A DNA stretch of 64,000 nucleotides, taken from NCBI GenBank assembly GCA_964016885.1, contig OZ024741.1, positions 301,010,001-301,074,000 on the forward strand. Reading direction: 5' to 3'. The position numbers and the translations under genes are program-made. Source of the stretch: Eledone cirrhosa. Its lineage: Eukaryota. Shown here piece by piece: positions 21,496 to 58,736 of the stretch (positions are counted from its first letter, which is position 1; each line of letters starts with the position of its first letter). Below the pieces are notes generated by a model. That model saw only the letters and a program-made list of their open reading frames with translations. It was not told the origin of the DNA and made no database searches.

Positions 21496-21543
21496 AAAAT
21501 GACCGGTTTCGATGGGTCTGCAAAAGCCATCTTTTCAAATGTT
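21496..21543 (-). ncRNA. Hammerhead ribozyme, U3-A8 variant (inverted pLTR copy)
   Basis: Reverse complement of 24346-24393. Confidence 0.65.
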
Positions 21544-21953
21544 GATTAATATTAAGAAAAATTAATAATACGAAGAGTTAAAATTTGAGATTTGAAAATT
21601 CAAGTATAAAATTCATTGTGGGATTTCATAGTAGTTTTCATCTAGGTAGCAACAACAAGTTGACTGCTGTGTCCCTTTCTGGTAGTGAATGAGAAGTTAT
21701 TTGGGGTGTGGGTTATTTTATAAAGGTCACATTTAGCAATGGCCAACTGGCCAGCTGCTGGTCAGTGAGGGGGTGGAAGCAATATACATACAACTATGGA
21801 ATAACAGCAGTCCAATACTGGCTTAACACACACCCATGAGAAATACCGACACGCATCAACACAGATTTTATCACTGACGGACTCCGCTTTATCCTACAAA
21901 ATAACTACTTCACATTCAATGGTTCAACATACAGACAAGTATCAGGTACGGCA

Positions 21954-23144
21954 ATGGGCACGAAAGTAGCACCCACATATGCCAACCTAGTCATGGGATT
22001 CCATGAACAACAAATATACAGTCAATCCCTTCTCTTATTTGGAGACTCTTTCCACACACACCTCAAAGCCAATTGGAAAAGATATCTAGACGACTGCTTT
22101 ATCCTATGGCAAGAAGACATGAACTCACTTACTATGTTTAAAAACATGATAAACAACATAGATAATAACATACAATTCACAATGGAATCCAATCCTAAGG
22201 AATTAGACTTCTTGGATATTCTCATCTCTGTAATAGACGGGAAATTAGATACAGATATATTCTATAAACCCACAGATTCCAAGCAATACCTCTTTTTCAC
22301 ATCAAGTCACCCAAAACATACAAAACTTAACATTCCTTACAATTTGGCCAAACGTATATGTACCATAGTATCAGATCCACCTAAACGGGAGCAAAGACTA
22401 AAGGAACTAAAAGACACCCTTATCTTAAGAGCCTTTCCACTTGAAATAATCAACAATGGAATAGACAGGGCAAAACACCTAAATCCCCATCAACTTAACA
22501 ATCCAAAACAGAAAACCACACTCAACACCCTGCCATATGTATCCACTTTCAACCCCAGAAATACCGAAATGTTTGATCACCTACACAAAAACCTCCCCAT
22601 CCTACTTAAAGATGTAAAAATGAAGTCTATTCTTGAAACACACAAGATCCTTAAAAGTAAAAGACAACCCAAATCACATAAACGCATTCTCACTGGACCA
22701 AATATACTCAAACCAATCCTCAACCCTACAGTTACCAAATGTGGTAGAACAAACTGTGGAACGTGCCTCTACCTCACTGAAGGACAAACATTTACATTCA
22801 AAGATGGCCAAACATTTACAGTAAAAAACAATTTCACCTGCAACTCGGAGAACTTGATTTACGCAATAACTTGCGGTGGGTGCAAACACAACTACATAGG
22901 ACAGACGGGCACCTCATTACGCAAAAGAATGACCATCCACCGCCAACAAATCCGGGAAGCTAACACAAGAAAAATCCCCTTGAGCAGCCATATTGCGAAC
23001 TGCGCAGGAATGACACTACCCAACTTTAAAATCTTCCCCTTCTACAAGTGCCCAGATTCGTTCACACAGCAACAAAGAATAAACAAAGAAAATCTATTCC
23101 TTAACAAATTTAAACCAAAACTAAACGGGTTATTACCCCAATAG
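21954..23144 (+). CDS. PLE RT C-terminal half + GIY-YIG endonuclease
   Basis: GTAMGTKVAPTYANL, WKRYLDDCF, LDFLDI, DIFYKPTD, SSHP, KCGRTNCGTC linker, NLIYAITC...NYIGQT..LRKRMTIH. Confidence 0.93.
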   Translation: MGTKVAPTYANLVMGFHEQQIYSQSLLLFGDSFHTHLKANWKRYLDDCFILWQEDMNSLTMFKNMINNIDNNIQFTMESNPKELDFLDILISVIDGKLDTDIFYKPTDSKQYLFFTSSHPKHTKLNIPYNLAKRICTIVSDPPKREQRLKELKDTLILRAFPLEIINNGIDRAKHLNPHQLNNPKQKTTLNTLPYVSTFNPRNTEMFDHLHKNLPILLKDVKMKSILETHKILKSKRQPKSHKRILTGPNILKPILNPTVTKCGRTNCGTCLYLTEGQTFTFKDGQTFTVKNNFTCNSENLIYAITCGGCKHNYIGQTGTSLRKRMTIHRQQIREANTRKIPLSSHIANCAGMTLPNFKIFPFYKCPDSFTQQQRINKENLFLNKFKPKLNGLLPQ

Positions 23145-23479
23145 AATTGTCATAAAATATAAACACACATACGCACGGAATCACTACTATTAAAGACCAG
23201 AGACCAATTCTGTAGAATCAGGTTTATTCGTTGACAGACCATGCCTTTGTGTGACCAACACATCCATGTTAAACCCTGCACGTGCACACACATATATCTA
23301 TATATATATATGCGCACACAGAATTCACCACTGTCGGTTGCGGGGCCCAATCTACATGAAGAACTCAATGTGATCAGAATGACTTGTATTTTAATTTCAC
23401 TGTCCCAACTTCTTATATTATGGAAAAAATATATGTGAATGTATGTATATATATATATATTTGGAGGCCATTTCTCTGT

Positions 23480-24030
23480 GTGTCGGTGTATGTATGTGTA
23501 TATGTGTGTGTGTGTATGTGTGTGCATGTCGATGTATGTATTGTGTGTGCGTGTGTGTATGTGTGTATGTATGTGTGTATCTGGATGTATGCGTATGTGT
23601 ATATATATATATATATGTGTGTGTGTGTGTGTGTATATATATATGTGTGTGTATGTCTATATATATGTGTGTGTGTGTGTATGTTTGTATGTGTGTATGT
23701 ATATATATGTGTGTGTGTGTATGTATGTGTGGGTGTGTGTGTATATATATATATATATATATGTGTGTATATATATATATATGTGTGTGTGTGTGTGTGT
23801 ATGTATGTGTGTATCTGGATGTATGTATGTATATATATGTGTGTGTGTGTATATATATATATATATGTGTGTGTATGTGTATATATGTGTGTGTGTGTGT
23901 GTACGTGTGTATGTATATGTATGTGTGTGTGTATGTATGTGTGTATATGTATATATATATATATATATATGTATATGTGGATGTATATGTATAGGTATGT
24001 ATGTGTGGATGAAGGTATGTGTGTATATAT
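23480..24030. repeat. Compound (TA)/(TG) microsatellite inside the PLE 3' UTR
   Basis: Direct observation. Source of the spurious ORFs 23384-24204. Confidence 0.95.
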
Positions 24031-24345
24031 AGGTGTAAGTGCACTAAATCCCTTTCTATCACGCTCCACTCTCCTACCCACCACAGGAAGATATATGTAT
24101 GTATATTGCTTCCACCCCCTCACTGACCAGCAGCTGGCCAGTTGGCCATTGCTAAATGTGACCTTTATAAAATAACCCACAACCCCAAATAACTTCTCAT
24201 TCACTACCAGAAAGGGACACAGCAGTCAACTTGTTGTTGCTACCTAGATGAAAACTACTATGAAATCCCACAATGAATTTTATACTTGAATTTTCAAATC
24301 TCAAATTTTAACTCTTCGTATTATTAATTTTTCTTAATATTAATC

Positions 24346-56189: not shown

Positions 56190-56790
56190 CTCTCCGAGAG
56201 CACACGGGAAGGGGTGCACCCCTCTCCTCTGTATATCCGTCATGGTCAGAGTATGCCCAATCATACGGGCCATTCTCACTACATCACCCACCTTTTAGCA
56301 AATGTACTGGTGGCAGCACTTCTCGCTCCTACCTAACCTTCTTTTCCAAGTGAAACTTGAAAATGTTGATGAAGGATTGGTCAAAGAGAAACGTTTCTAT
56401 CTTCAGTCCTTTCAATCTGCTCCATCACACAAAACCTCTTTCGCTACGGCCGCGAGACAGAGGAAAACTGTCTCCACTTCCCGGTCAAAAGAAATCGGTG
56501 AGTCAATCTTTACTATGGACTCGGTCGACAGTCGGATCCGTCTAACAGCGACAACAGCTGTTCAACAATTCGACAAGTCTGTAATATACGGACGCAGGAC
56601 GAGTGTGTGCAGAACGGTTTTGTCGTTCTGCGCACATGTCGGACATGCCCGTCTAATCTCACTTTCATGCCTGTAGAGTTTATACTGATCCGGCAGCACC
56701 CACCACCTAGGTAGCACAGTTAAGCGAGGCATTTCTGGAAGTCATCCATGATTCCCGTCTCACAAGTCCTCCGGAACAGACAGGTCAATT
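56190..56790 (-). mobile_element. Tx1/L1-like 3' fragment, decayed
   Basis: rc reads MDDFQK...KLYRH...RACPTCAQNDKTVLH...ESIVKI...FFNIFKFHL, homologous to 49060-49570. Confidence 0.8.
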
Positions 56791-57474
56791 CTATTTCGTC
56801 GAAACACATCCAAATATATGACGTCAAGTGATAAGATACTTTAAAGTCTTAAAATGCCTGATATATCTAAAAAAGGTAAACCGTACGTAATACTAAGTTC
56901 AAACAGTGCTCGTTCATGAAATACGTCATCAACAGTTTGAAATCTCCCTTGACCTGTTACATTAAATAGAACTGTGTATCGTAATTTTCTTTCACGTGAT
57001 AAATTAAATGAAATAGGATATGTCGAAAACATTAAAAATGTGCAAAAGATATTCAGAAAATGAACAAAGAATATTAGAAAACGTAGACACCCGAAATACA
57101 AAATTTCGAGGTGAGTTTGGTTCACTCCATGTTATTAATATTGAAAACTGTAGTGGTGTAATATAGAAAAGAAACTTTGGGTTATATATTAATAGAAATT
57201 TGAAAATTAGAACGATAGAACTGTTTATTCGGAAATTGGTTGTGAAAAACACCAAATAATTTCTCTTAAGGGTTCAATATAAATATATGAAACTTTATAA
57301 ACTATTTGAATAATATATATTTAAAATACTTTCGAAACATGAGGTTTAAAAACATTTATACGTACACTCATATATATATATATATATATATATATATATA
57401 TAAAGAAAAAAAGATGAAATCGAAAATATAACTGGAGTCTTATTTTTTTTTAAATATATATATATTTATTCGGT

Positions 57475-57516
57475 TCCTTTACCGGTTTCGCAGTTCTTCT
57501 GCTTTTCAAAAGTAGA
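57475..57516 (-). ncRNA. Hammerhead ribozyme, U3-A8 variant
   Basis: Reverse complement of 58695-58736. Confidence 0.8.
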
Positions 57517-58694
57517 GTTGAGATGGAGGGTCTGTGGATTTTCTCACATCTGGTTGTTCTCTGAATGTTACTTGTTTTATATGGAAAAAAGTGGCTCGAA
57601 ATGCCAGGTTTATAAAGAAGTAATTTGATTGTTTGGTCAATAATTATAATAAATTTCGCGCGAGTTCGCGTTACAAAGTTCTTCAAACAAGGGGGGGAGG
57701 ACTCAGGTTGTTCTTTCATATATGAGTGTTTGAATTTCTTTTTACTTAAAAAAAGGGGCTCACGAAGGCTTTTTTTAAATAAATGTAATTTGATTGGTTA
57801 TAAATGAAATTATGCGTGTCACGTGAACAAGTTTTCATTAAATTTTCGCGCCCTTATTTGGAAATCTATTCTGTAGCCTTTTTAGAGAATTTTATGACAA
57901 GCAAAAGATAATGGTCAAGAGAAATGGGATGGGAGAATTGTTCCGGTTCAGTAAATATGGTTAGTTCGCTGCGGTGTCAGAATTCAGATTTTCTATTGAA
58001 ATAAAGAAGGTAAAGATCTGTATGTTTATTTGTGTTCTTGTGTGTGTGTATTGGAAGATGATTCTGTTAGTAGAAATGGGGGAGGGAGTTGTGTGTGTGT
58101 GTATATGGGTGTTATGTGTGTGGGGGGGGGAGTATGTTAAGATGGAGAGAATATATATATTGTGTGTATGTGTATATATGTGTGTAGGAAAGTGATTCTT
58201 TTAGTAGAAATGGGGGTGTTGTGTGTGTGTGGGGGGGTTTATGTATGTGTATGGGTGTTATGTGTGTGGGAGTATGGTTAGCATGTTAAGATGAAGAGAA
58301 TATATATATATATATATATATATATATATTGTGTGTGTTTGTGTGTGTAGGAATATTTTTGAATGAACATATTTTCCTTACCTATTCGTATTTGTTCTGT
58401 TTTATTGTCAGCGCAAACGCATGTTAAGGTTTATTTAGTTCGGGTTTTTATTTTCTAAAGTCTTAAGTAAAACGAAATTCAAACACTCATATATGAAAGA
58501 ACAACCTGATCCCCCCCCCCTTGTTTGAAGAACTTTGTAACGCTAACTCGCGCGAAATTTATTATAATTATTGACCAAACAATCAAATTACTTCTATATA
58601 AACCTGGCATTTCGAGCCACTTTTTTCCATATAAAACAAGTAACATTCAGAGACCAACCAGATGTGAGAAAAACCACAGACCCTCCATCTCAAC

Positions 58695-58736
58695 TCTACT
58701 TTTGAAAAGCAGAAGAACTGCGAAACCGGTAAAGGA
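58695..58736 (+). ncRNA. Hammerhead ribozyme, U3-A8 variant
   Basis: TCtaCTT-TTGAAAA-GCAG AAGAA CTGC-GAAAC-CG-GTA|AAGGA. Palindromic ACCGGT stem III. Confidence 0.8.

Follow-up and report, generated by a model that had tools for sequence, protein, structure and literature searches.

Type I hammerhead motifs with a U3-A8 core in Penelope-like and non-coding repeat families of Eledone cirrhosa

The DNA analysed here, called the window, is a 64,000-nucleotide stretch of the Eledone cirrhosa genome (assembly GCA_964016885.1, contig OZ024741.1, positions 301,010,001 to 301,074,000 of the forward strand). It contains three repeat families, designated B, D and F, that carry hammerhead motifs with the core TTGA(A/G)AA in place of CTGANGA, with U and A at positions 3 and 8. 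C3 and G8 form the tertiary Watson-Crick pair of the active hammerhead fold (PMC3884650), and U3-A8 is a natural variant (PMC3088659). The original prediction had claimed hammerhead architecture for all three families, and all eight of its sites were recovered. When the window was searched with a strict descriptor (palindromic stem III, stem II of at least 4 bp, any base at positions 3 and 8), seven matches were obtained, consisting of six U3-A8 motifs (21538, 32411 and 57509 on the minus strand; 24351, 32978 and 58702 on the plus strand) and one C3-G8 motif (24702, plus strand). The same descriptor gave no match in 40 local Markov shuffles, while a loose descriptor gave 1.6 per shuffle. The motifs are located as follows.

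24349..24390, plus strand: family B type I hammerhead motif; U3 24351, A8 24356, predicted cut after C24388
21499..21540, minus strand: family B motif, inverted arm; U3 21538, predicted cut after 21501
58699..58734, plus strand: family D motif; U3 58702, A8 58707, predicted cut after A58731
57477..57512, minus strand: family D motif, inverted arm; U3 57509, predicted cut after 57480
32974..33064, plus strand: family F motif; U3 32978, A8 32983, long stem-loop II, 10-nt palindromic stem III, predicted cut after C33060
32325..32415, minus strand: family F motif, inverted arm; U3 32411, predicted cut after 32329
25272..25304, plus strand: decayed family D motif; shortened loop II, broken stem III palindrome
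53356..53390, plus strand: decayed family D motif; shortened GAAA
24696..24738, plus strand: canonical C3-G8 hammerhead used as comparator; matches Rfam HH9 at 33 bits, short of its gathering score of 52

The six intact U3-A8 motifs represent three insertion events, each pair being the two arms of one inverted insertion. Family B has the core TTGAAAA at 24351 (+) and 21538 (-; low end 21532), a stem II of 5 bp, GAAA, the stem III palindrome ACCGGT, C17 at 24388 and 21501, and a stem I of merely 2 contiguous pairs, the weakest of the three families. Family D has the same core at 58702 (+) and 57509 (-; low end 57503), with a stem I of 3 bp, a stem II of 4 bp, ACCGGT as stem III, and A17 at 58731 and 57480. 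The best-formed motif is that of family F, which combines the core TTGAGAA at 32978 (+) and 32411 (-; low end 32405) with a stem I of 4 bp, a stem II of 6 bp, the 10-nt palindrome ACTGTACAGT, and C17 at 33060 and 32329. The two decayed D copies noted earlier at 25275 and 53359 were both located with damaged motifs, the first with a shortened loop II and a broken palindrome and the second with one A missing from GAAA. A D subfamily (about 30% of depth, run X1) carries AC for TA at window positions 58697-58698 and thereby has a stem I of 4 pairs instead of 3.

All three families show the type I hammerhead core (N3-UGA-N-N8-A ... GAAA ... UH) with three helices, and all keep a Watson-Crick pair, U3-A8, at positions 3 and 8. 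They also have the short palindromic stem III and G10.1-C11.1 pair found in the hammerheads of Penelope-like elements (PLEs) in PMC4209133. A bulged base between A9 and 10.1, as in the strict minimal hammerhead, is absent in B, D and F. Rfam models gave no hammerhead match at E<=0.5 for the B, D and F loci; a canonical minimal motif in locus L057 was likewise missed, so the miss is not specific to U3-A8. Among the 150 of 267 Rfam matches listed for the window, there were low-complexity miRNA matches and HH9 at the canonical 24702 motif only. None of the B, D and F motifs folded with better energy than its shuffles (z from -0.5 to -1.2).

The elements that host these motifs are laid out in the window as follows.

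21723..23144 (open from 21840 to 23144), plus strand: family B frame with reverse transcriptase (RT) and GIY-YIG domain content, 5'-truncated; fuller copy at L177
24096..24540, plus strand: family B 3' repeat, the pseudo-long terminal repeat (pLTR); ends of family copies at +112 or +154 relative to the cut
21426..21792, minus strand: inverted 5'-truncated copy of the B repeat, 99.7% identical to 24096-24463
51897..52371, plus strand: endonuclease end of a D element, with a frameshift, located 5' of the 53359 copy
58463..58870, plus strand: family D repeat; ends of family copies at +79 or +139 relative to the cut
32090..33129, arms 32090-32690 on the minus and 32691-33129 on the plus strand: family F fold-back of a circularly permuted unit of about 600 nt

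Families B and D have the features of PLEs: an RT with a C-terminal GIY-YIG domain, direct pLTRs, and inverted 5'-truncated arms. The B repeat flanks the RT-GIY-YIG frame, and fuller copies of about 4.8 kb have direct repeats; in the fuller copy L177, RVT_1 and GIY-YIG are both present. The motif of both families is a sense-strand feature of the pLTR and follows the frame at a distance of 0.9-1.5 kb. The RTs of B and D are sisters in a quick tree (support of 100 in the Shimodaira-Hasegawa-like approximate likelihood ratio test, SH-aLRT), and TTGAAAAG and ACCGGT are common to both, while the repeats have little in common beyond the motif. Because of the sister RTs and these common sequences, the U3-A8 cores of B and D are counted as one origin, which would explain both. 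Their linker, CX4CxxC, is of the Neptune type (CX2-5CxxC), a clade to which they may belong. Among the 120 of 1,893 matches listed for the B protein, the named relatives come from bivalves or bivalve-symbiont assemblies. An ATG in stem II of family B opens merely 21 codons, and the long frame has its next ATG some 180 nt beyond the cut. No RNA dataset was listed for family B at window positions 24000-24463, which says nothing on expression.

The earlier assignment of these hammerhead motifs to PLEs is supported, and B and D are tied to RT-GIY-YIG frames. F has 861 candidate matches in the genome (40 scored). Its unit of about 600 nt is inserted as permuted copies, and no reading frame linked to F was found among the F loci examined. 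As a non-coding unit of less than 1 kb with a type I hammerhead, it resembles the non-LTR retrozymes. A Y-type PLE frame near some F copies was considered as a partner and rejected, as it adjoins F in differing orientations at TA repeats.

Exact patterns with positions 3 and 8 left free were counted over the 3.0-Gb genome. Family B gave 1,974 matches, and all 100 of those listed were U3-A8; family D gave 4,878, of which 99 of the 100 listed were U3-A8 and one was G3-A8. Of 31 further F copies, 29 have U at position 3 (one has C, one a gap) and all have A at position 8; N7 is variable (G in 15, A in 14, T in 2) between invariant neighbours. The wider class defined by the ACCGGT stem III and a short stem II, which is dominated by D, excludes B by its loop length and is no census, comprised 15,031 U3-A8, 49 U3-G8, 78 C3-A8 and 2 C3-G8 matches, against 0-1 matches for reversed-pattern controls. 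The single mutants are mostly scattered D mutants, and the two C3-G8 matches are both unrelated to B or D. U3-A8 is thus the consensus of B, D and F and not a product of decay, and the genome-wide tally proposed in the original prediction found single mutants to be rare. Within a family this rarity is no evidence of selection, since the inserted copies are young and decay neutrally; it is the pattern between families that counts. Together, B and the ACCGGT class amount to at least 17,000 U3-A8 motifs. They are nevertheless a minority class in this genome, because 21 of 24 motifs found in 750 kb of evenly spaced DNA (75 stretches; shuffles gave 0.8) are C3-G8, with 2 U3-A8 and 1 A3-G8.

Between families, positions 3 and 8 covary. 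Loci fetched from the same genome gave 177 distinct motifs in 22 clusters (focal matches of the single-mutant pattern searches dropped), of which 16 were C3-G8, 4 were U3-A8, and one each was a U3-G8 and a G3-A8 singleton, the latter taken as noise. The covariation is significant by Fisher's test (p 0.0008, without the G3-A8 singleton and uncorrected for kinship). In metagenome and genome collections, 35 of 89 loci with related RTs carried a motif, in 19 C3-G8 families, 5 U3-A8 families (one weak) and 1 A3-U8 family; three minus-strand non-palindromic matches and one match inside an open reading frame (ORF) were set aside. No uncompensated sense-strand family was seen among these 35 loci. A quick RT tree of 30 rows requires the U3-A8 label to change 6 times, with starred branches forcing at least 3 of these changes, and in an approximately unbiased (AU) test of 22 rows (quick LG+G4 tree) a single U3-A8 clade was rejected (p-AU 1.1e-5). 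The changes may include reversals, and F cannot be placed on this tree. Since the positions covary across families and the tree rejects a single clade, selection on the 3-8 pair appears well supported from these comparisons. The part of the earlier claim that held three independent compensations falls with the common origin of B and D.

The pair may also change over short distances. Loci L271 (C-G) and L274 (U-A) are close sisters whose ORFs are 82% identical and whose motifs occupy the same place, although they allow no base-by-base alignment. At L302:1964-2003 (+), in a metagenome contig, an A3-U8 core is found with a stem I of 5 bp, a stem II of 6 bp and ACGT as stem III. A PLE frame ends 278 nt before it, and the RT of this frame clusters with those of two U3-A8 loci; the motif is a single copy and the sole match in 393 loci. 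No paper on a natural A3-U8 hammerhead was found in the literature search, which does not show unpublished status. Hammerhead-bearing PLE frames were also found in bacterial assembly contigs (L334-L343), most likely binned host-animal DNA.

We consider it probable, at roughly 0.7, that these are type I hammerheads of two sister PLE families, B and D, and of the non-coding F, with a U3-A8 consensus, that still cleave slowly in part of the RNA. Two motifs would pair through the palindromic stem III, with 6 bp in B and D and 10 bp in F, and the predicted palindrome duplexes (-8.3 kcal/mol for B and D, -13.4 kcal/mol for F) fit the dimer model of PMC4209133. The F stem III could alternatively close 3 bp within one motif. 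In the hammerhead reaction, the ribose of N8 and G12 act as acid and base. Cuts after 24388, 58731 and 33060 would trim the precursor RNA. The element RT would then prime internally downstream of the cut, at +112/+154 (B), +79/+139 (D) and +70/about +235 (F), and copy back, so that cut RNA would give short copies stopping near +1 and uncut RNA would give longer ones. F would likely be carried by a PLE protein, perhaps via a ligated circle. Of the three families, D would be expected to cut least well in vivo, because its U3 could pair with A17, by analogy with the C3-G17 trap described in PMC3884650.

If priming is internal and downstream of the cut, as in the anole PLE, copies of cut RNA are expected to stop near +1. 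For family B, matched patterns gave 142 5' junctions at -1..+7, compared with 34 upstream and 47 downstream; 13 of the 142 come from one array, and 4 of 30 loci proved to be internal indels. Where inverted partner arms of B pass +14, 9 of the 11 longer partners stop at +1..+8. Partner arms crossed the cut in 2 of 11 cases in the downstream set, whereas 9 of 10 were predicted to do so from the upstream offsets (p 0.002). The array, L374 (G000:C4:321064001-321074000), is a tandem of 455-bp units with 13 junctions in two inverted blocks; its units start at the predicted B cut, and it may have arisen by copying of an RNA circle or by expansion at a later time. Of the 11 upstream partial repeats of F that approach the cut to within 100 nt, 10 end at +10..+66. 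These signals at the predicted cuts of B and F are suggestive and confounded, and the copy ends are read here, tentatively, as partial, slow cleavage. Two incidental D copies start at +1. At window positions 58659-58666 (D, -72..-65), 5' ends accumulate strongly, which likely marks the start of transcription or a splice acceptor, and many D copies are stubs of 150-210 bp.

Several observations weigh against continued cleavage. At lowest energy, B forms an 11-bp hairpin in which the core is buried and which extends to +7, and the B pile-up has its mode at +6/+7 and not at +1 (hand count, 100 listed rows); the pile-up can also be explained by this hairpin or by TATA microhomology with the (TA)n target. 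None of 30 B loci starting at the cut continues into the ORF, by which their reading as full-length elements was rejected, and full-length B copies retain the whole upstream motif. One F repeat crosses the predicted cut (-20), and the F stops might stem from a circle copied slightly more than once, or from a short master. The F motif shows no more than a weak depletion of shared variants (3 of 40 versus 30 of 144 columns, p 0.06), and G12A occurs in 5 of 31 F copies (at a CpG). In a sample of D copies chosen by presence of the motif, 86 of 150 start at -81..-56 (most at -72..-65), upstream of the cut, so their templates were uncut RNA. An older B-related lineage has 11 U3-G8 against 2 C3-A8 matches, compared with 38 against 76 elsewhere (p 0.0005). 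This lineage comprises L115, L119, L121-L123, L125, L131, L141 and L144; two unselected copies of it are U3-A8. Finally, in vitro insertion of the anole PLE did not require its hammerhead, which itself depended on protein (PMC11167929).

The strongest competing explanation, which we regard as unlikely although the most serious of the three considered, is that the 3-8 pair is kept for the fold itself (protein binding, or RNA pairing in the particle) or as a relic, and that B and D no longer cut. It draws on the weak stem I and competing fold of B, on the span of most sampled D copies across the cut site, on the lack of effect of hammerhead mutants on anole PLE insertion in vitro, and on PMC4209133, which reports low activity and leaves other functions possible. 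However, the 3-8 pair forms in the active conformation, G12-A13-A14 and U16.1-H17 are invariant across families with differing stems, and copy ends accumulate beside the cut in B and F. It is very improbable that the true F core is the canonical CUGAGGA at 32965, 13 nt upstream, with the U3-A8 word incidental: the descriptor accepts this parse, which scores best in 4 of 17 F motifs, but it is disfavoured by a stem II of 3 pairs against 6, and 12 of 31 copies have T at its A9 (32971), while the U3-A8 core shows no variation at A8 or A9. Decay of canonical CUGANGA families at random and with AT bias, the alternative that the original prediction had named, involves two GC-to-AT transitions in DNA of 37% GC, and the bias may favour the switch, but this explanation is already refuted by the counts (2 C3-G8 against 15,031 U3-A8 in the same stem III class, with singles at 49 and 78), B and D are young with near-identical copies, and AT bias cannot explain the lack of uncompensated families.

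The U3-A8 hammerheads described here are a new instance of a variant published in 2011 and 2014; no paper on the B, D and F families of this genome was found in the literature search. The first natural cases, several examples, were reported by Perreault et al. 2011 (PMC3088659), who note activity in vitro by citing another study; the compensatory change is the same, and the passages considered here do not link it to PLE families. In PMC4209133, Cervera and De la Pena (2014) reported U3-A8 covariation in the minimal hammerheads of Cercyon PLEs of Schistosoma mansoni (families Sm3, Sm4), with about 1,300 matches to a dedicated descriptor; among their aligned representatives, 2 of 56 are U3-A8, and one U3-G8 is listed. 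As in B and D, the Cercyon core swap lies in the pLTR of an RT-GIY-YIG element, and the Cercyon hammerheads are likewise family-scale, mostly in single or opposite-strand copies, and predicted to act as dimers. Unlike the Cercyon U3-A8 motifs, B, D and F are without the bulge between A9 and 10.1, as is the shrimp example in that paper, and have the 6- or 10-nt palindromic stem III of the shrimp, fly and mosquito variants. B and D further differ in having a linker of the Neptune type, and the copy number here is more than 10 times that of Cercyon U3-A8.

The anole Poseidon element PAc (PMC11167929), in which the RT primes internally downstream of the hammerhead and two start sites define the 3' ends, shares with B, D and F two preferred 3' ends downstream of the motif; unlike B, it has a C3-G8 core and an ORF that starts in stem II. 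The inverted arms and the Neptune linker motif CX2-5CxxC are described in PMC8557442, whose methods use a CUGANGA-only descriptor. F resembles the non-LTR retrozymes of animals (bioRxiv 10.64898/2026.07.22.740005) in being non-coding and below 1 kb, with one type I hammerhead and permuted, slightly more-than-unit copies. According to that preprint, an active retrozyme requires two whole tandem motifs, and none of 28 other F loci (the best matches of the 861 candidates) has them.

The remainder of the window contains four canonical C3-G8 hammerhead families that the original prediction did not list, at 5315, 5640/5877, 19842/19995 and 24702; two of the four have an AT-only stem III palindrome. 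Beyond the window, F-like C3-G8 motifs with a long stem-loop II and an 8-10-nt palindromic stem III were found at L408:459 and 7514, L105:2029, L054:2614 and L186:6109, and a fragment of one such motif precedes F in L097 and L101. The other elements of the window are the following.

10194-11816 (minus), 29894-31012 (plus) and 62271-63926: additional frames of PLE-like RT/endonuclease type, flanked by inverted arms; the descriptor tied no motif to them
41372-43473, 46134-49339 and 13339-15308 (minus): decayed non-LTR retroelements; RVT_1 at 41372, AP endonuclease at 46134

The variant class had been described as invisible to CUGANGA searches, and in this genome CUGANGA-only descriptors would miss at least 17,000 motifs, about one in twelve intact motifs (2 of 24 in the random sample); the class itself had already been published (PMC4209133, PMC3088659). 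F is a well-formed candidate hammerhead for a bench assay, and large young families such as B allow in vivo PLE cleavage to be tested from copy ends. More tentatively, and in our view rather doubtful as a whole, the 3-8 pair may flip repeatedly in PLEs, even between close sisters and on to A3-U8, possibly via a tolerated U3-G8, with the B and F copy ends recording U3-A8 cleavage in vivo. If so, the activity of PLE ribozymes in the germ line could be read from the genome itself through these copy ends.

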